A stretch of 64,000 bases of DNA from a virus (Duplodnaviria; Caudoviricetes). Below are positions 17,277 through 48,305 of the stretch, piece after piece. Under the pieces are notes generated by a model, which had not been told where the DNA came from, did not search any database, and saw only the letters and a list, made by a program, of their open reading frames with translations. Positions within the stretch are counted from its first letter, which is position 1; every line of letters starts with the position of its first letter. A program made the position numbers and the translations under genes. Location of the stretch: IMG/VR virus record IMGVR_UViG_3300031992_000090, positions 1,401-65,400 of that record; one strand, 5' to 3'.

Positions 17277-17776
17277 TCTTCTACTTCCACTCCAAACGGA
17301 TACCATTCACCACTGTCTGGGTCCTGCCATTCATAATTCTGGAATAATTCTTCCATATCAGATACACGGCAGCCTAAACCAATATGTGTGCTTTTTAAAT
17401 CAAGCTCGGTTATCAATACCTGGACTGTATGAGTGCTACCTTTAGAACGAATGTTAAACACTAAGCCTGCGCAGCCTGTGACTTTTATATGCCGACAAAG
17501 TTCTTCGCAATTCTTAAACGGTCGCCATTTCTTTTCGCCGTTTTTTACGTCTGTAACCTTACAGGCAGGAATGAAAAGACCGTACGAATATCCATCATCA
17601 CGACAAAAAGTTTCGTTTACAGCATTATCCAGATAAATCTGCGTTAATTTTCCGTAGTTCCACTCTTCTGCATTTTCGATACAATAGTCAGAAAAGTAAC
17701 CAGCCTGGCCTATGTACTGTTTAGCCTCGCTAGCGTTACTCCAGGAAAAAACGTCTTCCTTATTGAAAGTTTTCAT
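17273..17776 (-). CDS. Hypothetical protein
   Basis: 167 aa, GGAGTAGAG RBS. Confidence 0.65.
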   Translation of the reverse strand: MKTFNKEDVFSWSNASEAKQYIGQAGYFSDYCIENAEEWNYGKLTQIYLDNAVNETFCRDDGYSYGLFIPACKVTDVKNGEKKWRPFKNCEELCRHIKVTGCAGLVFNIRSKGSTHTVQVLITELDLKSTHIGLGCRVSDMEELFQNYEWQDPDSGEWYPFGVEVEE

Positions 17777-17778
17777 CT

Positions 17779-18045
17779 CTACTCCTGAATATAAATACGA
17801 ATTTCTACAAAATCTTTATGCTGATCTAACAGAATATGTTTTACTTCCCATGTATCATATTTGTTTGATTTATCTAAAGGACATAGATACAGTTCTTCTT
17901 TGGAATACGCATACACGTCACAGACAAAATCTTCCACAGGTTGTATAGGTCCATACTCGTTCTGCATTTGAAGATATAACCTGTTACTTACCGATAACCT
18001 GTGCGATAGTATGAATTCTTTTATAGCTGCTAAGGTGATCTGCAT
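17779..18045 (-). CDS. Hypothetical protein
   Basis: 88 aa, co-oriented. Confidence 0.5.
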   Translation of the reverse strand: MQITLAAIKEFILSHRLSVSNRLYLQMQNEYGPIQPVEDFVCDVYAYSKEELYLCPLDKSNKYDTWEVKHILLDQHKDFVEIRIYIQE

Positions 18046-19703: not shown

Positions 19704-21695
19704 TTATACCACCGTAAAGTCTGTACCTACCTCAGCTTCACAGCCTACAGGGAACCCCTCCAACCATTCCGGCACTGAGGACATTACCCTTTCCATAGTA
19801 GCTTTAGTCTCTTCTACCTGACTGTCAGGAACTACCGTACAGAAAGAGTCGTGAATATTAGCCTTGATAGAGATACCTGCGTCTGCCATACGGCAGGCCT
19901 GCCATGCCAGCATATGGAAAGCCAGTGACTGCGTAATATTCTCCACACACTTAGGACCTGTGATGCGGTTGTCCAGCAACTTTCCGTGTTCCCAGCGTTT
20001 GTAGAGCTTGGACACACCGCCGAAATTGTCCTCGCCTATGTGCAGATTCGGATACCAGATCTTGAACCCGTTAGGCAGGAGAATGTAGGCGGCTCTCTCA
20101 CTGGTAAGCGGTATGCAGTCCCACCCTGCGGTGAACATGTCCGCATGACCGAAAGTAAAGTGTGCTCCCATGGCTGTGTCTTTGCACAGATGGTCGAGAA
20201 TGTTGTCACACAGTTTCCAGAACTGGACGATTTTGAAATTGACCTTACGGTAAATTGTATGTGCCTGTTTTGACAAAGCGTTATGTTCTTCGATATCATC
20301 AGACAGGTGCACGTTACTGCGCAGTAAATATTGAGCGAATAACTTTGCACCAATTCCGTAACCTGCTGATAATACACAAGTTTTTCCTACATTTCGATAT
20401 ACCTTATAGGTAGAGTGATTCGGATCGTCATTGTGTTTGGCACCGTCATGGATAGTCTGCGCGTCTATACTAAAAATCTTAGCCGCCATCTCAGCGTATG
20501 GATCACGACCAGTACGGAACTGTTCTATCAGATCTTCCTGTTCAGCTTCCCATGCAAGCATACGAGCTTCTATCTGAGAGGAGTCACAGGCAACAACCTT
20601 GCAGCCCTCTGGTACTTTCAGCGCCTGTCTGATAATCAGCTTGCTTGGATCACGCTTGCTCAGGTTCTGGAAATTGAGCTTGTCGCTGCCCTCATTAGAG
20701 CCAGCTGCATAACGTCCCGTGTGTGCCTTGTAAGTTGCCAGCATAATCGGTACAGCTTTAGCCCCTTTGCGTACCAGTGACTCCGCACGGGACTTCTGGA
20801 TTGAGCTGTTCAGGTTCAGTCTGGTCTGCACCAGCAGCGCAATGTCAGGGTTTGGATCGTCTGCCATGGCTACGAAATCCAAGTCATTCTTGGCAGTAGC
20901 CGGTATCTCGCACTGTTTCTTATCGCTCCATTTCATAGGACAGACACCGCCGACTTTCTCCATAAGGGTTGGGAAAATCTTAGGAGAGCGGATAGCTTTC
21001 AGCAGTTCCTCTGTGGTGTCGTAGTGCAGTACGTGTGCAAGATTTACTCGTGCCTGTTCCTGCTCGGCATCGAGCCTTGCCAGGTAATCCTGCAGCATAG
21101 GAATATCTGGAATAAACGCAGGCTCAGTCGCCATCTTGGCTGTAAGGCTTATGAGCTTTAGCGCATCAGGCTGCATGTAAGGCAGCATACTGTAGAAGTT
21201 GGCAGCGCACTGGCTCACATCGTCCTTGCAGTAGTCTGTGAAATATGCCCATTCAGTATCTGTAAAATCCTGACGGTGCTTACCATCGGACACTACGGTA
21301 CCAGGTTTCTTGATGCCGTGTCCTAAGGTAGCAGTTAATTCTTTATGGGTACAGCGGATGACACGGGACAGACCTACCCAGTTCATCATGGGTATAGTGT
21401 CCAGTATCATCCATGGTCTGATACCATAATGCTCTGACAGAATGAGTGCGTCAAAGCCAGCCATATTATGACCGACTACAATCGTACCGGGTTCGTCCAG
21501 TTTAAGAGCTTTCAGAAACCTTACATCAAGACCATTCTCAGCAGGACAGACCACAGTCTGGTTGTGATCTATCTGTGCACCGACACACAGAACCTCGAAA
21601 CGGGGATCGCGTATATACTCTATCGGCCCCATCTTAGATAATGTATAAGTCTTTGAATCAAAAAAAGATTCAAAGTCCAGCACGATTACACGCAT
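19704..21695 (-). CDS. polA: DNA polymerase, family A (phage type) with 3'-5' exonuclease
   Basis: DFES exonuclease I; DSSQIEAR motif A; RNVGKTCVLSAGYG motif B; NIHDS motif C. Confidence 0.93.
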   Translation of the reverse strand: MRVIVLDFESFFDSKTYTLSKMGPIEYIRDPRFEVLCVGAQIDHNQTVVCPAENGLDVRFLKALKLDEPGTIVVGHNMAGFDALILSEHYGIRPWMILDTIPMMNWVGLSRVIRCTHKELTATLGHGIKKPGTVVSDGKHRQDFTDTEWAYFTDYCKDDVSQCAANFYSMLPYMQPDALKLISLTAKMATEPAFIPDIPMLQDYLARLDAEQEQARVNLAHVLHYDTTEELLKAIRSPKIFPTLMEKVGGVCPMKWSDKKQCEIPATAKNDLDFVAMADDPNPDIALLVQTRLNLNSSIQKSRAESLVRKGAKAVPIMLATYKAHTGRYAAGSNEGSDKLNFQNLSKRDPSKLIIRQALKVPEGCKVVACDSSQIEARMLAWEAEQEDLIEQFRTGRDPYAEMAAKIFSIDAQTIHDGAKHNDDPNHSTYKVYRNVGKTCVLSAGYGIGAKLFAQYLLRSNVHLSDDIEEHNALSKQAHTIYRKVNFKIVQFWKLCDNILDHLCKDTAMGAHFTFGHADMFTAGWDCIPLTSERAAYILLPNGFKIWYPNLHIGEDNFGGVSKLYKRWEHGKLLDNRITGPKCVENITQSLAFHMLAWQACRMADAGISIKANIHDSFCTVVPDSQVEETKATMERVMSSVPEWLEGFPVGCEAEVGTDFTVV

Positions 21696-22153: not shown

Positions 22154-22157
22154 ATCT

Positions 22158-22355
22158 CTACTCCTTTTCTACTTCCTCAGTACCTGCTATGCGCTCCAAA
22201 TTTTCTATACGTTTCTCGAGGGTACGTATTATTTCTATGAGCGCAGTACTTACCGCGTATAAATCTTCGTCCATACAATAGTAGGCGTTTTCACCTACTT
22301 TATGACCGGCACGAGCCTTTTGTACGTTCTGTTCGAACTCATCTAAAATGTTCAT
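22158..22355 (-). CDS. Hypothetical protein (start reassigned to 22355)
   Basis: GGAGTAGAGAT precedes ATG 22355. Confidence 0.6.
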   Translation of the reverse strand: MNILDEFEQNVQKARAGHKVGENAYYCMDEDLYAVSTALIEIIRTLEKRIENLERIAGTEEVEKE

Positions 22356-22365
22356 ATCTCTACTC

Positions 22366-22950
22366 CTAGATCCAAAGTAATTCAGGGTTACCTTTAAAAC
22401 CTTTCTGCCATATAAACCATGCAAAAGCTACTGCACTATGCGTGGTCTGTGCATTTACATCACCATTCTTACAGCATTTAATTCTGGCTGAGAACACGAG
22501 CACATACCGCATAGGATTGGAGGAGAAGAATACTTTGCGCTGTTTTCCCTCAAGGAACTGCAGCCTTAACAGCGCACAACAGTACTCCCCCTCCTTTAAC
22601 ATTCCAAGTGCATGGTCAATATGCTCAAGTGCGTCACTGTACGGAGGATTCATCACAATAGCTACAGGTTCTTCTGTCGGTCTCCTGACTGTCATCCAGT
22701 CTGCTACTATGGTGTCGTGCCATCCTCGGTCTACAATGTCGTAGCTGTGTACAGTCCACTGCAGTATCTCGAAAATTTTAGCTATATGTCCTGCGCCTAC
22801 ACTTGGTTCTATGATATGCAGCGGCAGTCTGATATTCAGTTCCATAAGCTTTTTGATAAGTGCATACACAGCTACAGGATCCGTAGTATAGAAATCATGC
22901 TCGGCTCTATTGTCCTTAGGACCTAATTGTATAGTCTTACAGGTACGCAT
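22366..22950 (-). CDS. Orphan amino (N6A/N4C) DNA methyltransferase
   Basis: DFYTTDP, EPSVGAG (SAM-binding motif I) and NPPY (motif IV). Confidence 0.85.
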   Translation of the reverse strand: MRTCKTIQLGPKDNRAEHDFYTTDPVAVYALIKKLMELNIRLPLHIIEPSVGAGHIAKIFEILQWTVHSYDIVDRGWHDTIVADWMTVRRPTEEPVAIVMNPPYSDALEHIDHALGMLKEGEYCCALLRLQFLEGKQRKVFFSSNPMRYVLVFSARIKCCKNGDVNAQTTHSAVAFAWFIWQKGFKGNPELLWI

Positions 22951-22952
22951 CT

Positions 22953-23168
22953 CTACTCCTCAACGTCGTCATAAATCTGAGAACCAAACTCACATACCAG
23001 CTGCACTACATCACAGGCGATCATTGTCAGTTCATAGAACACATAGTCTTCATTCAGTCTGTGCTGTTTTGCAAGTCTCTCAGCATGACCCCGTAACTGT
23101 GTCTCGAGTTCTTCAAAGAACCTGTCATAAACCAGATCACGCTTAGACTTTTTCTTATTCTTACTCAT
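22953..23168 (-). CDS. Hypothetical protein
   Basis: 71 aa, co-oriented. Confidence 0.5.
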   Translation of the reverse strand: MSKNKKKSKRDLVYDRFFEELETQLRGHAERLAKQHRLNEDYVFYELTMIACDVVQLVCEFGSQIYDDVEE

Positions 23169-30040: not shown

Positions 30041-30072
30041 GTTCTCTACTCCAATAAACTTTATATACTATT

Positions 30073-31884: not shown

Positions 31885-32279
31885 CAGTAAAGATTCTCCA
31901 GTAAGCGCTGCCGATATGCCACATGTTTATTCTTCTTCCCTTTGCCCAAATACCATATGCCATAATGCATACTGGCAGACTCCACCTTAAACAGGTCGTA
32001 GCGGGTACGCCAGTTGTCATGGTAATACAGCCACAGGAGCCACTTGTAATGGCGGATCTGCTCACGCTGCTGCATAATCTCTTTCCAGTAATTAGGCAGC
32101 ACGTTCCTGATAATCGGTGTACCTGGGTGCTGTCGGCAGCTGTCAAGCAGTATCCGATAGCTGCGGTACAGTTCATCATGCAGCTTAATCGCACGGTCAA
32201 GTCCTGCGTGGGCCTGCAGATACTGTTTGAATGTATAACGGTACCGATAAGGGTGCCGAAATTTAGAATAACGGGACAT
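31884..32279 (-). CDS. Hypothetical basic protein
   Basis: 131 aa, GGAGTAGAGAA RBS, coupled to the helicase. Confidence 0.6.
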   Translation of the reverse strand: MSRYSKFRHPYRYRYTFKQYLQAHAGLDRAIKLHDELYRSYRILLDSCRQHPGTPIIRNVLPNYWKEIMQQREQIRHYKWLLWLYYHDNWRTRYDLFKVESASMHYGIWYLGKGKKNKHVAYRQRLLENLY

Positions 32280-32301
32280 TTCTCTACTCCTTACAGCTGA
32301 T

Positions 32302-35635: not shown

Positions 35636-35659
35636 TTTCTCTCTACTCCAAATAAAATG

Positions 35660-36058: not shown

Positions 36059-36082
36059 TTTCTCTATCTCCAAAATCTATTA

Positions 36083-38444: not shown

Positions 38445-38466
38445 TTTCTCTACCTCGTATAGTTGA

Positions 38467-38712
38467 TTAAGCGCAGTCTTTAAGCGCAATCAGCTCTTCT
38501 AACCAATCCGTTACATAATACGGATTATCTTTTAACCATTGTTCGAACTCATCTGCAGTGCCTTGACCGTTTGTTCTGTCCTGAAAATCCTCCCAAAGCG
38601 GATCTTCTACGTCGTAATAATTGAACAGATAACCCTTATACATAATTTCAGGATCAGCCCAATCGCCGTGATAAATAAATTTAACACCCTTGATACCTAG
38701 ATAATTAGCCAT
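38467..38712 (-). CDS. Acidic, aromatic-rich early protein
   Basis: First gene after the consensus promoter; HGDWADPE...FNYYDVED. Confidence 0.65.
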   Translation of the reverse strand: MANYLGIKGVKFIYHGDWADPEIMYKGYLFNYYDVEDPLWEDFQDRTNGQGTADEFEQWLKDNPYYVTDWLEELIALKDCA

Positions 38713-38748
38713 TTTGTTTTACCTCTTATTTAACAATCTATATCGTGT

Positions 38749-38778
38749 ATTATAGACTATCTAAATTGTCACTGTCAA
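38749..38778 (-). promoter_or_regulatory. Strong sigma70 early promoter
   Basis: TTGACA (38773-38778)-18 bp-TATAAT (38749-38754) on the minus strand. Confidence 0.8.
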
Positions 38779-39300
38779 GAATAAATTGTGATACATATAA
38801 CAATTTAAAATAGTATTTGTATATACAACAATCTAAATTAGTTGTTTAGTGCAACTGTAAAAATTTACAGTACATTTTTAGTTAAAATTATAGAATGTGA
38901 TAAAGGATTATCATTGTAAATCATAATGATAGTGCCGATTTTACAGACTTTACAGTTTTTACAGTTTCAAAAAACAGGATTCAGCAAAATGAGTCGCAAT
39001 TGCAAAAAACTTTTTTAAAAGTTTTTTAATTTTTCTGGGCAAAAAAACTAGAGCCCTGTTTTTTGCAGCACTAATTTCTGTTCACTTACTACTACTATCT
39101 ATAATATAATATAATATAAAATAAATAAATAAATAAATCAAGGGCTTAGTCCCCCTCAACGCCGCAAAAACCGTGATTCACATCACACTTTTACAACCTG
39201 CAAAACTGTAAACATTTTTCTGTCATCTCACTAACACCATGATTTATAAAATAAATCTTGTTTTCACAATTCACATTTAAAACTGTAAAAACTTCCTTTA

Positions 39301-39372
39301 TCTTATATATCAGTAACTTGCAAATAAATCACTGATATATAAGAGGTTGTTACACAAATAATGTAACAACCT
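39301..39372. repeat. Two abutting inverted repeats in an AT-rich non-coding region
   Basis: TCTTATATATCAGT-16-ACTGATATATAAGA and AGGTTGTTACA-7-TGTAACAACCT. Confidence 0.85.
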
Positions 39373-39439
39373 ATATATTTTATAATAAAATGCTACGCTG
39401 TCTCAGACAACCTATTTTAATTTAGGTACGAAAGTTGCA

Positions 39440-39742
39440 TTAACTTGCATAATGATCTATGTTTGCGTTCAATCTGTCAAAATTCCATTCTAGATCGTTC
39501 GCAATAAAAGCTGTCAACGTATCGCCTAAGTATGCGCCATTGAATAATGTTTGTGCAAGTTTGAAAATGCTAGCATGTACTTTTATGTGATGCACGTCAA
39601 TGCGATGGATGCATTGATTGATAGCGTCTCTTAATGTAAAATAATCACGTTCAATAAATGCTGCTTTTAAGTCGTTAATATCGATCATTGATAGCAGTGT
39701 GAAGCATATTTCAGCTTTGTCTTTTTTATTCATTTTAATCAT
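39440..39742 (-). CDS. Hypothetical early protein
   Basis: GGAGGGTAGAGAAA RBS. Confidence 0.6.
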   Translation of the reverse strand: MIKMNKKDKAEICFTLLSMIDINDLKAAFIERDYFTLRDAINQCIHRIDVHHIKVHASIFKLAQTLFNGAYLGDTLTAFIANDLEWNFDRLNANIDHYAS

Positions 39743-39747
39743 TTTCT

Positions 39748-40146
39748 CTACCCTCCGAAAACTTCTACAAATATTTGTTTGCCATCAAGATCCCACACAT
39801 CCCACGAATCAAGCATTAGATCCACGAATAGGTCTTTAAACTCATTATCGTATGAATCCGTGATAGTCATACATTCTGTGTCATCTGTATTGAAAAATTC
39901 AGCATCCAACCAAATGAGTTTTGTATCATCGTGCGGCGTGTCATACAGCTTGCATACTGTGCCACCATGCCCAAGTGCTTTTATCCGATTCGAATATTCG
40001 TTAATGCGATCTACTAATTCAGCGGTTTCAATGTTTTCAATATGCTTGAAAGTTTTGCGTTTTAATTGTTCAAAGCGCTTAGTTTGCATCGTTTCAATAA
40101 AGTCTTCTGAATTATCAAATCCGTATACTTCTATTTCATTGTTCAT
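39748..40146 (-). CDS. Acidic early protein
   Basis: GAGG RBS; D/E-rich. Confidence 0.6.
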   Translation of the reverse strand: MNNEIEVYGFDNSEDFIETMQTKRFEQLKRKTFKHIENIETAELVDRINEYSNRIKALGHGGTVCKLYDTPHDDTKLIWLDAEFFNTDDTECMTITDSYDNEFKDLFVDLMLDSWDVWDLDGKQIFVEVFGG

Positions 40147-40160
40147 TTTTATTCCCTCAG

Positions 40161-40490
40161 TTAGTCAAAAATAAATTTAGTAAAGCACGCTTTGTTTTTT
40201 GCATAGCTTGCTTCGGAAAACAGTTTGTCTAAATTGCGACAGAGATATTCATACGTAAATGCATCACACTGAATTGTAATTTTTATTGCGTCTCTTGTGA
40301 GTGCTAGTTTCATTTTGAATCCATCAACTATGTCTTGCGTTACTTTAGGATCTTCTGTTATTTCGTTTACGATTTGTGCAAGCTCTGATTCATAGCGTTC
40401 TTTCAATTCATTCATTTCTGACTCACTTGTTCCACGTGGAACGTTTACTTGTTTACAGGCACTTGCAGTGCAAGCACCACATACGTGCAT
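40161..40490 (-). CDS. First gene of the early arm, hypothetical
   Basis: 109 aa; the start could be the internal Met. Confidence 0.5.
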   Translation of the reverse strand: MHVCGACTASACKQVNVPRGTSESEMNELKERYESELAQIVNEITEDPKVTQDIVDGFKMKLALTRDAIKITIQCDAFTYEYLCRNLDKLFSEASYAKNKACFTKFIFD

Positions 40491-40553
40491 CTACCTATAT
40501 TATAAACGATGTGCGTAGTAATTCCACAATATTTTATAACTTTTGTAACTAAG

Positions 40554-40569
40554 TGTGAGCTTTGTCACA
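40554..40569. promoter_or_regulatory. CRP-consensus site
   Basis: TGTGA-GCTTTG-TCACA, a perfect TGTGA-N6-TCACA in AT-rich flanks. Confidence 0.55.
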
Positions 40570-40922
40570 TTTTAATTTATAAGTGATTGATAGTAAAGGA
40601 AATGTTTGCACGGCTTGCATATATATGTATAGACCTGTCACGCCGTTGGCTGTACGTCTAAGATGCCGCCGCATCTTGAATGGCTGACACGTTTGGTTTG
40701 TATACGTATAGATACTGCACGCATCTTGTATGTTAGACGGTGAGGCGATGCCAGGGGGGCGGGGGCGGTTTGGACAGCGGCGCGGCGACACCCCCCACCA
40801 CACACATTAGGTCTGCAAAAATTTTTTATAAATTTTTCAAAATCTTAACACAATCTACATTGCTCGTTTTCAAAGTCTGCTACACTTGCGACGCCCTCGG
40901 TGTCCTATTTGCACTCTTGGTC

Positions 40923-41104
40923 TGCGGCGTCTCCGATGTCCTATCTTTTATTATGAGTGCGGCGTCTCCGATGTCCTATCTTTTATTATGAGTGCGGCGT
41001 CTCCGATGTCCTATCTTTTATTATGAGTGCGGCGTCTCCGATGTCCTATCTTTTATTATGAGTGCGGCGTCTCCGATTTCCTATCTTTTATTATGAGTGC
41101 GGCG
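40923..41104. repeat. 35-bp tandem repeat, 5 full copies plus a partial
   Basis: TGCGGCGTCTCCGATGTCCTATCTTTTATTATGAG at 40923, 40958, 40993, 41028 and 41063 (one G>T), then TGCGGCG. Confidence 0.95.
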
Positions 41105-41151
41105 CCCTCGGTGACGTTACTGACGTTACGTTTATTCTGTCCTCAGTGTCC

Positions 41152-41180
41152 TTGACATCACCATTAAAATTAAGTACAGT
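41152..41180 (+). promoter_or_regulatory. Sigma70 promoter for the hairpin RNA
   Basis: TTGACA (41152-41157)-17 bp-TACAGT (41175-41180). Confidence 0.7.
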
Positions 41181-41186
41181 ATGAGT

Positions 41187-41240
41187 GTGCCTTGGCTGAT
41201 TAGTTCTTCCGTTTCTCTACTCACTTGTCAGTTAGGGCAC
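41187..41240 (+). ncRNA. Candidate small hairpin RNA with an anti-RBS loop
   Basis: 13-bp stem 41187-41199/41228-41240 (3 G-U pairs) begins at the predicted +1. The loop contains TTTCTCTACTC (41212-41222), antisense to early-gene RBS motifs. Confidence 0.5.
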
Positions 41241-41280
41241 TCCCCAGTCCTATAATTTTCCGCGTCTTGCATACAAATAG

Positions 41281-41309
41281 TGGCAAATCTCCTTAGTTTC
41301 GCATATACT
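41281..41309 (+). promoter_or_regulatory. Putative promoter of the late arm
   Basis: TGGCAA-17 bp-TATACT upstream of the AGGAG RBS of 41343. Confidence 0.55.
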
Positions 41310-41342
41310 TAGAGCAGTAGTTCAAACCTAGGAGAACTTTAC

Positions 41343-43025
41343 ATGACTGTAACATTTGTACCAGGTGAGCTGAAATCTGACGGTTCACGTCAAAGACCAA
41401 TCGACGGTTCTGTAATTGATAACGCTTACATAGATAAGCCTGCTCTCGTATCGTCTGATGCAGACAATCTTCTTAAAACCGGCACAGACGGTAACCTCAT
41501 TGTAGACAAGAATGACATTCCGGCAGCCGCAGTTCCGGCCGCCTCTGATTATGTATCCGCAGAAAGCGGTAATCAGCTTAAGGTTTCCACTGTTGACTCC
41601 AAACTGTTTGTAGCAGAACCGGAGGACGTTGATCCGGCCTCTCTGGTTTCAGGTGTTTCCGGTAATGCTATGACAGTTGCAGCCGATAATAAGCTTTACG
41701 TAGCGTCTGCTGATGTCCCGTCTCCTGCTGATATGGTGTCCTCTGATACCGGCAATCGTTTGACCGTAGGTTCCGACAGCAAGCTGTTTGTAGCAAGTCA
41801 GAGTGTAGCTCCTGCCGATCTGATTTCAACTGACGTCAATAATTCTCTGGTACGCGGTTCAGATGAGAAGCTCAAAGTAAAGGTAGTCTCCGATGATGCG
41901 GGCAACCTGCTGACCCGCGGTTCAGATTTAGGTGCCATGGTAAAGGCTGCTGATATGATTTCAAACGGCAGCACCGGCAACCTTATCATTGAGAACGCTA
42001 CTGACCATGGACTTGAGGTAAAGACTTCCGATGTCCAGACTTTAATCAATACTGCTCTCAATGAGAAAGTGATTGTGTCCGAGGACGCTGACAATCTCAT
42101 AACCAAAGGTACCGACGGCGGTGCGTTCCTGTCAGGTGACGCCCTGCCTGATGCCGTGTCCGCAGGTGAGGGTATCGCAGTTGACGCAGGAAAGGTGAGT
42201 GTCCTCCCAGGTCACGGTCTTGCCGTAAACAGCACTACCAACAAGCTGTATGTCAACGAGGACGACTTAGACTTCAAAGAGATTTCATTGGCGGCTACAG
42301 AGAAAATTCTGTCTCTGACTTCATCAAATGAGCTGTCGTCCAGTCTGTCCATGTCCTACAATGCTTCCACAGGTTATTTAACTCTGCAGGGTATCGGCGG
42401 ACAGACCGTAGACTCTATCTATATTCCAGGTGCGGAGCAGGCTCTGCTTGGTGTAGAGGTGGTAACCAATCCGGTAGGTTACGAGCCGGGCACCTATTTC
42501 AAGTACACCTTCACTACCGCAGGCGGTAACGTGGTGTCCTATGTTAAAGTCCCAGAGGGTTCCACCACTGTAGGCGGCGACGGTATCAACGCTGTAACCT
42601 CAGACGGCGTGGCTACCGTTTCTGCCAGAGCAGGGCTTGGTATCAGCGTAGACTCTGTCGGTATCAATGTCAAACCTGAGGCTGACAAGGGTCTGAGCGT
42701 AAGCGCCAGCGGCGTGGCTGTCAAGGTTAAGTCAGGCGGCGGTGTGGTGGTGGACGCCGATGGTCTGTCAGTTGACACCTCAGTGGTTCCAACCTCTGAC
42801 GCCTTAGAGGCTCTGTCAAACCGTGTGACCGTGGCTGAGGGTGACATTGGCACCGTTAAGACAGGTTTAACAAATACCAATACAAAATTAAACGATCTGC
42901 AGGACGAGGTTGACGCTCTTGAGCTGAGCGCTTCCTCGCTGTCAGTATCCAGTACCGAGGTAGATCCGGGCACCCTTGACAATTCAACCGGTGCGCTCTA
43001 TCCGGCTACAGATTTGTTGTCATAA
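41343..43025 (+). CDS. Tail fibre/appendage protein 1
   Basis: Repeats of VSxDxxNxLxxGxDxxLFV and of GxGIxVxxxGxSV; C-terminal coiled coil and YPATDLLS motif. Confidence 0.75.
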   Translation: MTVTFVPGELKSDGSRQRPIDGSVIDNAYIDKPALVSSDADNLLKTGTDGNLIVDKNDIPAAAVPAASDYVSAESGNQLKVSTVDSKLFVAEPEDVDPASLVSGVSGNAMTVAADNKLYVASADVPSPADMVSSDTGNRLTVGSDSKLFVASQSVAPADLISTDVNNSLVRGSDEKLKVKVVSDDAGNLLTRGSDLGAMVKAADMISNGSTGNLIIENATDHGLEVKTSDVQTLINTALNEKVIVSEDADNLITKGTDGGAFLSGDALPDAVSAGEGIAVDAGKVSVLPGHGLAVNSTTNKLYVNEDDLDFKEISLAATEKILSLTSSNELSSSLSMSYNASTGYLTLQGIGGQTVDSIYIPGAEQALLGVEVVTNPVGYEPGTYFKYTFTTAGGNVVSYVKVPEGSTTVGGDGINAVTSDGVATVSARAGLGISVDSVGINVKPEADKGLSVSASGVAVKVKSGGGVVVDADGLSVDTSVVPTSDALEALSNRVTVAEGDIGTVKTGLTNTNTKLNDLQDEVDALELSASSLSVSSTEVDPGTLDNSTGALYPATDLLS

Positions 43026-43041: not shown

Positions 43042-43836
43042 ATGGCTGATATTGCATATGCAAATGTCGTGTTTAAAGACGCTGCCGGTAATACAGGTCA
43101 CATCAAGACTTTAACCGCAGCAGACATTACCCGTGTCCAGAACACTATCCAGGGTCTGAAAGACTTAAAGGACAGAGTAGATGTTATCATTGACAATAAC
43201 GGTGCTTTCCTTGCCGCTACTGAGGCAACTGATGCTGTCCTGGGTACTGTAAAGAAAGCTTCCGCTGCTGACGTTACCGCAGGTACCGCAGGCAAGGTTG
43301 TTGATGCTGCTCAGTTAAAAGCTGTAGCTGACAAGCTCACTAACGGTGTTCACTACAAGGGCACTGTAGCAACCTTTGACGCTCTGCCTACTACTGACGT
43401 AGAGGCTGGTGACATGTACAACGTTACTGCTGCCTTTACCAAGGACGGCATTAACTATCCGGCAGGCACCAACGTCATTGCTGACACCTCAGGCGCATCT
43501 GTTGAGTGGGACGTCCTGGACGGTGATCCATCAGGCTTTGCCAAGCAGGCTGTAGCTAACACCTTCACTGCTGCCAACACCTTCAATAACGACGTTACCG
43601 TAGCGGCTGCTTCCGGTGGTTCTGCTCCTAATGTGGATCTCACTGGTGCCAACGTTACCGTTGCAACTCAGAGCGCAGGTGACAATTCTACCAAGGCAGC
43701 TTCTACTGCTTACGTAGACGCAGCTGTGGCAGAGGTTGTTAAATACAGCGCATCCGCTCCTGCTGATGTGTCTGCCTTAGACAACAACACAGCTACATTC
43801 TATCCTGCTCAGGATCTGCTTTCAGATCCAGTTTAA
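43042..43836 (+). CDS. Tail fibre protein 2 (start 43042)
   Basis: AAGGAG RBS; ATEATDAVLGTVKKA T4-like fibre repeat; HYKGTVATFDALP domain. Confidence 0.75.
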   Translation: MADIAYANVVFKDAAGNTGHIKTLTAADITRVQNTIQGLKDLKDRVDVIIDNNGAFLAATEATDAVLGTVKKASAADVTAGTAGKVVDAAQLKAVADKLTNGVHYKGTVATFDALPTTDVEAGDMYNVTAAFTKDGINYPAGTNVIADTSGASVEWDVLDGDPSGFAKQAVANTFTAANTFNNDVTVAAASGGSAPNVDLTGANVTVATQSAGDNSTKAASTAYVDAAVAEVVKYSASAPADVSALDNNTATFYPAQDLLSDPV

Positions 43837-46944: not shown

Positions 46945-47039
46945 CTGTGCCAGGCACAATACGGCTTTTCATCCATCTGACAATAAACTCTAGCCTTATC
47001 AGTTATTTGTCCTGATATCTGCGGCACATTGAGCACAGC
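46945..47039. promoter_or_regulatory. Arm-like GCACA site set, copy 2
   Basis: CTGTGCCAGGCACAATA plus direct GCACA pair at 47024 and 47033, overlapping the integrase 3' end. Confidence 0.7.
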
Positions 47040-48132
47040 CTTTTGAGCAGAGGTAATCCCACCAGTTTTGCAGAACAATTCTGCGCTGTGCCGTAAGCTG
47101 GGAGTGCATGTAGGCCTGGACGGTTTCCGAGCCGGTGACATGGGCAAGCATACTCTCTGCCACTTCAAAAGCTACGCCCTGCTCTGCCATCCATGTGCGT
47201 CCTGTAGCTCTAAGCCCATGATGGGTGGTGACACCGCTCAGGTCACTGGCTTTAAGCCATTTGGTAAGCGCCTGCACATGGACATGCTTTCCGCGTCCTA
47301 TTCGCCATATATAGGGGCTTCTGCTGTGGTTCAGGTATTTGATTTCGTCCAATAGATTTATGACAGGCTGGATCAGCGGTACCGTATGGTCACGTCTTTT
47401 TTTCATAAATCTGGCAGGAATGGTCATCACATCATCGGTGATCCATGACCACTGCATCTGGCTGACCTCATTGGGGCGCAGCATTGACCAGACACAGAAC
47501 GTGACATAGATTTGCCAGGCTCTCTCCTCCTGTGAGCACAGACTGAACAGCAGATTGAGATTCTGCGGGTTTATATAGGGGTGGTGTCTGACGCATTTAG
47601 GCGGGAGTATGCGGGAGAGCTGGGCTGCCACGTTGGCATCTACCAGTCCTGCGGCTTTGGCAAGATTGAGCATCTCATTTATGCGCATCAGACAGCGTCT
47701 GCGGGTTGCAGGTCTGTCCTTGAGATTGTCAAGGGCCTCGAGTATTTGAGGTGCGTTTAAGCTGTCCAGTTCACATTTTCCCAGTTTGGTTATGATATAC
47801 TTCTCGATGCGTTTTTTCTCATTCGGATAGGAAGTCAAGCTCTTTTTCTTGTCTCTCCAGAGATAGAACGCATCCCATAGGCGTGCTCCTTCTGATGATT
47901 TCAGTCCAAGTCTTGCTCGTATTTTGTGCGCTTGAGCTCTGGCCTGGACGATGGTCATGGGAACACGGCCTAGGGTGATGTCTCGCACTTTGCCGTGTTT
48001 ACTGTAGCGGAGCACATAAGTTTTCACGCCAGAGGGGAATACACGGACAAACAGACTTTCCCCAAGTTTAAAGGTATAGCGTTTGGTTTGAACCGGCAGA
48101 CGGTTGATGGTTTGTTGAGTTATCTTATTCAT
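46999..48132 (-). CDS. int: Tyrosine recombinase (P4-type integrase with arm-binding domain), probable shufflon invertase
   Basis: AGGAGG before ATG 48132; N-terminal LFVRVFPSGVKTYVLRY arm domain; catalytic LRPNE, K, HGLR, LAH and AY. Confidence 0.9.
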   Translation of the reverse strand: MNKITQQTINRLPVQTKRYTFKLGESLFVRVFPSGVKTYVLRYSKHGKVRDITLGRVPMTIVQARAQAHKIRARLGLKSSEGARLWDAFYLWRDKKKSLTSYPNEKKRIEKYIITKLGKCELDSLNAPQILEALDNLKDRPATRRRCLMRINEMLNLAKAAGLVDANVAAQLSRILPPKCVRHHPYINPQNLNLLFSLCSQEERAWQIYVTFCVWSMLRPNEVSQMQWSWITDDVMTIPARFMKKRRDHTVPLIQPVINLLDEIKYLNHSRSPYIWRIGRGKHVHVQALTKWLKASDLSGVTTHHGLRATGRTWMAEQGVAFEVAESMLAHVTGSETVQAYMHSQLTAQRRIVLQNWWDYLCSKGCAQCAADIRTNN

Positions 48133-48305
48133 ATCGTTAACTTTCCTCCTATTAATTTGATAGTACATTTTTCGGAAAGTTGCATTAACTTGTAGATAAT
48201 TAAGCGTTTACACGCAAGACTTGTGACGGATTGTGTGAAATTCTTTTGTTTCTGACATATAATAAGACTAGTTATGTAACTTAACACTTGAGGAGTTAAT
48301 TCCAA

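Follow-up and report, generated by a model that had tools for sequence, protein, structure and literature searches.

What is understood of temporal control in phages mostly concerns promoters, sigma factors and anti-terminators, along with a handful of mRNA-directed proteins such as RegA and RegB of T4. In Firmicutes, the hairpins of S. aureus RNAIII and the RsaE/RoxS RNAs use pyrimidine-rich loops to pair with the Shine-Dalgarno regions of many mRNAs without any long antisense stretch, and a 5' hairpin with zero overhang is the hallmark of the ompA-type stabilisers. Among phages, the closest described systems are the c4 RNA of phages P1/P7 and the CI RNA of P4, which are phage-encoded structured leader RNAs devoid of a classical sRNA terminator and released by processing (PMC12197685), and whose exposed loops pair around a ribosome-binding site (RBS), thereby blocking translation (PMC12197685; Citron & Schuster 1990 cited therein). 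In T4, the early mRNAs share a ribosome-site signature of ~11 nt (GGA followed by an A-rich part) that is read by RegB with S1 (PMC1702504), a signature by which one factor can silence this dispersed set of messages jointly once the early phase is over; RegA is a translational repressor (PMC3014915). Our literature search, the 2025 phage-sRNA review PMC12197685 included, did not turn up any lytic phage with a described anti-RBS RNA acting on several targets.

The locus described here belongs to an uncultured ruminant-gut phage known from an IMG/VR virus record rated complete; the 64,000 of its 65,400 bases that were analysed are called the window. The nearest isolates are Pseudomonas phage KPP25 and Rhizobium phages, with a DNA-polymerase identity of only ~30%; a DNA search with 40500-42000 against 50,697 phage records gave zero matches, and a tRNA search found none. 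In a crude ORF map, the minus-strand early arm covers 26 kb (13655-40490) and encodes a family A DNA polymerase, a DUF927 primase-helicase, an SNF2 helicase, a VWA protein and an AAA_5 ATPase in addition to many small ORFs. The plus-strand genes start with a 560-aa fibre-like protein (41343-43025) containing an Av_adeno_fibre repeat, and run from there through the fibre-cassette region, the lysis genes, a likely terminase and portal and other structural genes, the last of them coding for a 2768-aa protein. The two arms are separated by a divergent non-coding region (40491-41342), in which the promoter P1 and the hairpin HP1 are located, ahead of a same-strand plus-gene block of ~38 kb. A second non-coding stretch, AT-rich and 0.73 kb long, lies within the early arm (38713-39439) and contains a perfect consensus promoter on the minus strand, TTGACA-18-TATAAT, with its first hexamer from 38778; this is probably the main early promoter for the genes leftwards from 38712.

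Promoter P1 (41152-41180, plus strand) combines TTGACA (41152-41157), a 17-nt spacer and TACAGT (41175-41180), with a predicted +1 near 41187, and it is the sole plus-strand site of the region in which a promoter scan recognised 10 of 12 consensus positions. Both the sequence read and the scan thus bear out the promoter proposed in an earlier note on this DNA, and P1 looks constitutive. HP1 (41187-41240, plus strand) would form the first 54 nt of the transcript: 41187-41200 pairs with 41227-41240 in a 14-bp stem that includes four G-U pairs, and a small 3-bp inner helix accompanies a loop of about 26 nt. The earlier note had counted 13 bp from the predicted +1; the start stands, and folding adds one pair to the length. 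The plus strand folds at -21.1 kcal/mol (z = -5.07; none of 200 shuffles folds as well), versus -11.5 kcal/mol (z -1.62) for the minus strand, and the corresponding hairpin of the related genome G001 shows the same asymmetry (-20.0 kcal/mol and z -4.95 for the plus strand, -6.3 kcal/mol and z -0.62 for the minus strand). The G001 stem likewise contains four G-U pairs, and all such pairs become A-C mismatches on the other strand; this orientation favours the plus-strand RNA fold only and thereby excludes that selection acts on a DNA cruciform or on an RNA of the minus strand. HP1 is present in one copy in the genome, no Rfam family reached its gathering score anywhere in the window, and a search of 40500-41500 against Rfam at E up to 10 gave no relevant hit.

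The comparison set consisted of G001, a mosaic genome of 61.5 kb with ~80% nucleotide identity to the window, and of many near-identical metagenome contigs. An IMG/VR search gave G001 as the one related genome, a scan of JGI metagenomes gave it again, and a single-protein search with the ATPase as query found nothing; a protein search combined with contig look-ups provided the contigs, all of the G001-like clade, with 7-8 distinct leader variants. Every one of these variants keeps TTGACA, the 17-nt spacing and a hairpin at the predicted +1, their -10 hexamer being TAAATT, and in both clades the stem begins 7 nt past the -10 hexamer, at the predicted +1. In the alignment of HP1, 99% of the cells are paired across 16 pairs, three of which carry a compensatory change on both sides; the scores of shuffle and slide controls are far below this. 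To judge by sequence, HP1 is therefore a conserved, strand-specific RNA element of the plus strand. More distant lineages (L018, L019, L032 and L038), whose fibre N-terminus is 36-56% identical, have different leaders in which no P1-HP1 was recognised by eye; no recurring tag of the kind described below was seen in L038, and the tag of L019 differs (TAGGAGACA), a matching anti-loop for it not being found. Judged from these sequences, the P1-HP1 unit is specific to one phage clade. The relatives also differ from the window in other respects: the DNA polymerase gene of G001 carries an insertion of ~1.15 kb (39570-40721 of G001), absent from the window at 20363-20374, for which an intron, an intein and a homing-endonuclease insertion are candidates.

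The 3' half of the HP1 loop contains the segment UUUCUCUACUC (41212-41222, plus strand), which is single-stranded in the folding ensemble (P(unpaired) 0.78-0.99) and complementary to an extended ribosome-binding site recurring along the early arm. The core of this tag, GAGTAGAGA, is the commonest 9-mer of the window, and GGAGTAGAGA is its commonest 10-mer. GAGTAGAGA has eight copies where 0.67 would be expected, all of them on the minus strand; seven stand 0-6 nt ahead of early-gene start codons, and the eighth, alone in not adjoining a start codon, is the HP1 loop read in antisense. That antisense copy was also considered as the RBS of a minus-strand ORF and rejected, neither clade offering a start codon at a usable distance.

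The earlier note had listed ten minus-strand starts as complementary to the loop (17776, 22153, 22355, 22950, 30040, 32279, 35635, 36058, 38444 and 39742), and perfect complementarity of 8-11 nt was recovered at ten of ten: 9-11 nt at nine of these ribosome sites and 8 nt at the tenth. The tag reads GGAGTAGAG(A) before a 167-aa early gene (17776-17785) and before a 194-aa methyltransferase-like gene (22950-22959) whose G001 orthologue retains it, and GGAGTAGAGA before a 148-aa early gene (22155-22164), a 65-aa early ORF (22357-22366) and the 443-aa AAA_5 ATPase gene (35640-35649). It is extended to GGAGTAGAGAA before a 150-aa early gene (30042-30052; 10-nt match) and to GGAGTAGAGAAA before a 131-aa early gene (32279-32290), which, with an 11-nt match, is the best target. 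The remaining three starts carry close variants instead of the exact GAGTAGAGA, namely GGAGATAGAGAAA (36059-36066; 132-aa gene, 8-nt match), GAGGTAGAGAAA (38445-38453; 101-aa gene, 9-nt match) and GGAGGGTAGAGAAA (39743-39751; 100-aa gene, 9-nt match), with forms such as GTAGAGAAA and TAGAGAAA among them. All of these tags lie on the minus strand, and the genes behind them have no function in common. Near P1, at 40399-40415, a possible eleventh target was noticed: CAAGTGAGT, a 9-nt complement to the 3' edge of the HP1 loop and the top of the stem, precedes ATG 40415, which is an internal start in the 109-aa ORF that lies closest to the promoter.

The energies of whole-loop duplexes separate the targets poorly, any pyrimidine-rich loop binding purine-rich ribosome sites moderately well, and exact matches combined with loop shuffles were used in their place. 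The actual loop reaches ten ribosome sites with at least 9 nt matched. When the 28-nt loop was shuffled 20,000 times with its pyrimidine-rich composition kept, at least ten ribosome sites matched over at least 9 nt in 0.01% of the shuffled loops (P = 1e-4), and 0.4% of the trials reached the observed result in the same test at 8 nt. The complementarity between loop and tag is far above composition-matched chance. When both strands were scanned for duplexes with the 16-nt loop core, early-gene ribosome sites made up about half of the top 22, at -15.7 to -20 kcal/mol. The sequences flanking the ten tagged sites are mutually unrelated, and the tag word therefore recurs by selection and not by duplication or copying. 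Of the 53 minus-strand ribosome sites 7 carry the exact tag, and of the 54 on the plus strand none does (Fisher P = 0.006); the tag is biased to early genes but not confined to them, weaker forms such as GGGTAGAG being present at a few late genes (2899, 55154). According to the earlier note, the first G of GGAG stays outside the pairing with the loop. This holds in the window and fails in the relatives, whose loop ends in CUCC and would pair. The conserved core of the loop, UCUACUC, is on sequence grounds directed to the spacer-specific part of the tag, and not to the generic Shine-Dalgarno core in the manner of a CCUCC anti-SD.

How loop and tag vary together was followed across the two clades. 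UCUACUC is invariant in the loops of all G001-like relatives, whereas the 5' half is variable; loops of the G001-like type are 19 nt long and end with UUUUCUACUCC, and the three or four changes that distinguish the loop of one variant (L017) all fall in the 5' half. With only two clades at ~77% background identity, this conserved 7-nt block is weak evidence. In G001, GGAGTAGA is found at five early starts and no late start (P = 0.011). A C of the window loop faces G in seven of seven window tags, and the U of the relatives' loop faces A, G or T in their tags; such differences between the clades fit co-evolution of loop and tag, and are far from proof of it. The G001 loop finds five of its own ribosome sites at 8 nt versus seven in the window, and a single target of its own at 9 nt (P = 0.26). 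The covariation of loop and RBS that the earlier note had suggested as a check therefore gave a weak signal, the G001 loop fitting the window sites as well as its own; most tagged genes of the window are without a G001 orthologue, and the site-by-site comparison covers four or five genes.

Other occurrences of the loop sequence were seen in the relatives. At 2287-2299 of G001 (L011), a 13-nt copy, TGTTTTCTACTCC, lies on the plus strand, in frame (YMFSTP), within a 351-aa gene of the fibre cassette, ~0.002 such matches being expected by chance. As a target ribosome site this match (G001:2292) was rejected, since it lies on the non-coding strand of the plus-strand fibre gene. Only in the G001-like clade, a small hairpin, CTGTG-AACTACTC-CACAG, whose loop contains CUACUC, stands just upstream of P1 (3785-3802 in L002); in L017, where an additional 198-aa ORF separates the repeats from P1, it forms the end of that ORF.

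The earlier note had proposed a candidate phage sRNA, with 41260 as the end of its interval. No intrinsic terminator was found after HP1; the unit is therefore not a free-standing sRNA gene, and the end at 41260 is unsupported. The sole terminator-like hairpin (41233-41252, 6 bp, -6.8 kcal/mol) shares eight bases with the far stronger HP1 stem, with which it cannot compete, and its U-run is broken by a CAA insertion in the commonest relative variant. The sequence that follows the stem is UCCA in G001 only, UCCCCA in the window and UCCCG in other relatives, and no conserved CCA-like end was found among them. Downstream, the whole 156-nt leader is structured (z -3.04), two further conserved hairpins coming after HP1: HP2 (41265-41288, plus strand), a small one with nine pairs and one compensatory change, and HP3. 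The unit moreover lies in tandem upstream of the promoter of the fibre operon. This promoter-like element, P2 (41280-41327, plus strand), reads GTGGCA-18-TATACT, with its -10 at 41304-41309, and includes a 26-nt block (41302-41327) that is identical between the clades in a region otherwise ~77% identical. Six lineages, with fibre identities as low as ~40%, all keep TATAMT and AGTARTT unchanged some 40 nt ahead of the fibre ATG, the window versions within the block being TATACT and AGTAGTT; the block is probably the promoter and start region of the fibre operon. It was also considered as a repeated late-promoter motif and rejected, no other copy being present in the window.

From the tandem arrangement of P1-HP1 and P2 and the lack of a terminator, HP1 probably stands at the head of an RNA that continues as a leader or mRNA, or is cut out of such an RNA. 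Since the fibre operon has its own ancient promoter in P2, the P1-HP1 unit is an add-on, and its placement argues for a job other than fibre expression. Two possible actions in cis on the fibre gene were rejected: pairing of the loop with the fibre RBS AGGAGAAC, for which the match is poor, and sequestration of the fibre Shine-Dalgarno sequence in P1 transcripts only, for which the differences in P(unpaired) are too small (0.04 vs 0.27 in the window, 0.23 vs 0.34 in G001). A sheep-gut metatranscriptome run (0.06 of sampled words) contained three short perfect contigs (38562-38722, 41343-41514 and 43330-43533), none of them over 41187-41260; contigs of this kind are uninformative on starts, ends and absence. 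DNA of this phage or of the G001-like clade was also seen in the ENA GAIO21-1 series and in the runs SRR8960077, SRR29381460 and SRR31487440.

The DNA upstream of P1 is rich in repeats and conserved blocks. Between 40923 and 41104, a 35-bp unit is repeated in 5.2 tandem copies, 99% alike, each of which carries CCGATGTCCTAT and a weak promoter-like pair on the minus strand (AGGACA-16-CATAAT). The array is flanked by copies of GGTGTCC/CAGTGTCC (40899-40908 and 41144-41151), one of which abuts the -35 hexamer of P1, and the relatives, in which the number and the sequence of the repeats differ, have a GGTGYCC core in common; by their sequence, the repeats look like iterons or operator arrays. Farther upstream, at 40756-40830, a G-run, TTTGGACAGCG, a C-run and then AAAATTTTT compose a block conserved in every relative, down to ~40% fibre identity, and present twice in L032 and L038, with the second copy just upstream of the fibre promoter. 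The 84-aa GTG ORF that overlaps this block (40549-40803) is probably not a gene, and the block could serve for packaging, as an origin or as a special promoter. Several independent G001-like assemblies of 58-60 kb (L025-L030) end 0.75-1.1 kb upstream of the fibre gene, where their first 100-250 bases lie within microsatellite arrays of 5-7 bp, (ACATG)n, (CAGAA)n and (CACGACA)n; either the assemblies broke at these repeats or the physical genome ends may lie here.

Set beside the described systems, HP1 resembles the c4 RNA of phages P1/P7 and the CI RNA of P4 in being a structured RNA at a leader, without a terminator of its own, that exposes a loop against RBS sequences. It differs from c4 in the number and the location of its candidate targets: c4 acts on one or two sites downstream on its own transcript, in prophage immunity, whereas HP1 has about ten candidate sites, on the opposite strand, over 26 kb. 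No covariance-model match places HP1 in the C4 family of Rfam, and its best matches lie not downstream on its own transcript but on the opposite strand, at 17.8-39.8 kb. With the C/U-rich-loop sRNAs of Firmicutes it shares the use of one pyrimidine-rich loop for many candidate Shine-Dalgarno regions; those are host RNAs with terminators and a generic UCCC/CCC loop, whereas HP1 sets UCUACUC against a private phage tag. Like an sRNA gene it has its own predicted promoter and an accessible seed, but neither its own terminator nor a 3' end was found. The tag itself, GGAGUAGAGAA, fits the general form of the RegB/S1 signature of T4 (PMC1702504), with the difference that the reader is a protein in T4 and, in the window, a candidate complementary RNA loop. 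As in the ompA-type stabilisers, a stable hairpin extends from the first transcribed nucleotide, here from a 5' end that is itself predicted; in those stabilisers, however, the loop sequence is unconstrained and there are no targets in trans, whereas part of the HP1 loop is conserved. HP1, as proposed, works most like the c4/CI leader antisense RNAs and the anti-Shine-Dalgarno sRNAs of Firmicutes, and is a member of neither class on account of the absence of an Rfam match, its dispersed targets on the other strand and its private loop motif.

The explanation that we favour, with a probability of roughly 0.4, is that the HP1 loop would be a trans-acting anti-RBS element on about ten early mRNAs. 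Points that count against it are the constitutive look of P1, the missing terminator, the weak covariation of loop and tag, the weaker tag forms at late genes, the moderate pairing of any pyrimidine-rich loop with ribosome sites and the lack of a shared function among the tagged genes. Its main competitor, which we consider somewhat unlikely, is that HP1 acts purely in cis, either as a 5'-terminal stabiliser against 5'-end-dependent decay or as an element shaping the leader; the match between loop and tag would then be a coincidence, and the tag would serve efficient starts or be recognised by a protein, for instance a nuclease like RegB or a repressor like RegA. Several features would be expected of such a stabiliser: in both clades the hairpin begins right at the predicted +1 and leaves no 5' overhang, it is followed by a gene and not by a terminator, and the entire leader is structured, with HP2 and HP3 conserved. 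The weak covariation of loop and tag also suits it, and the 11-nt tag of the T4 early mRNAs, GGA plus an A-rich part, is a precedent for a protein reader (RegB with S1; PMC1702504). A stabiliser, however, needs no particular loop, yet the loop of HP1 contains a perfect complement to the word that is most over-represented in the genome (P = 1e-4 by loop shuffles), and it is the anti-tag part that is kept in every relative variant while the 5' half varies. P1-HP1 is moreover unneeded for the expression of a fibre gene that is already served by the deeply conserved P2, and the 39 early proteins, many of them without a known family, include no RegA or RegB homologue (no hit to the RegB family).

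A nascent-transcript element of the lambda nut/boxB or HK022 put type, bound by a protein or by RNA polymerase, is a more doubtful candidate still. Anti-termination through the plus-strand fibre and structural block would agree with the promoter-proximal position of HP1 at the head of ~38 kb of same-strand genes, with the conservation of the stem and of part of the loop, which would be the recognition site, and with the GATGTCC/GGTGTCC motif arrays that reach the -35 of P1 and suggest a regulated promoter. It leaves the mirroring of the RBS tag by the loop unexplained, and a single copy of the element in the genome, the absence of any recognised N-like or Q-like protein and the lack of a matching Rfam family all speak against it. 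Highly improbable, finally, is a function of HP1 as DNA in a replication or regulatory region, whether as a cruciform or as an eighth double-stranded GAGTAGAGA site for a phage protein. The common orientation of the eight copies of GAGTAGAGA, all on the minus strand, and the 5.2 copies of the 35-bp repeat adjoining the hairpin, in a repeat-rich non-coding region typical of origins, are what recommends it; the G-U pairs of both stems (four in the window, four in G001) would nevertheless be mismatches in a cruciform, and the other seven copies stand at a fixed Shine-Dalgarno distance from start codons, which is the place for an RNA signal.

The mechanism that we propose for the trans-acting loop can be summarized as follows. 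The near-consensus, sigma-70-type promoter P1 would drive the synthesis of a plus-strand RNA beginning with HP1, and the hairpin would either remain at its head, as part of an extended leader or mRNA, or be excised from it. The single-stranded 3' half of the loop would pair in trans with GGAGUAGAGA, a private tag made of the Shine-Dalgarno sequence plus its spacer, in about ten genes dispersed along the 26-kb early arm. This pairing would occlude the binding of the 30S subunit and perhaps accelerate the decay of the mRNAs, and the firing of P1 would in this way turn down dispersed early proteins together. Such an sRNA regulon, for which the complementarity is the evidence, is plausible.

RNA-based immunity had been considered as another outcome of this pairing. 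A tyrosine recombinase gene (46999-48168) is indeed present, but in the fibre genes beside it a 15-mer is present four times, and the recombinase and these alternating 15-bp crossover sites would, from their arrangement, constitute a fibre shufflon. The 15-mer, CCTAACATAACTGGA, occurs in four copies of alternating orientation between 44930 and 45819, where ~0.01 would be expected by chance. Many of the G001-like relatives are without the recombinase gene, and none of the 39 early proteins is repressor-like, in agreement with the observation in the earlier note that no CI-like repressor is evident. The phage shows no sign of lysogeny; because the recombinase flanks a fibre shufflon and is absent from many relatives, and no repressor was recognised, RNA immunity is unlikely. 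The form of the regulon idea that survives is the early shut-off, or dampening, of gene expression, which is plausible from the sequence.

In conclusion, our observations lead to the picture of a virulent gut podophage that would endow a scattered set of its early genes with a private RBS tag, and in which an anti-tag hairpin RNA alone, with no protein regulator, would stop early translation as the promoter of the fibre and late side is activated. We hold this complete scenario to be rather unlikely in its entirety. If it is true, a single loop reading a private tag would shut off early genes by RNA alone, the odd and over-represented extended RBS kept by some phages would find an explanation, and the co-regulated gene sets of uncultured phages would become predictable from sequence alone.
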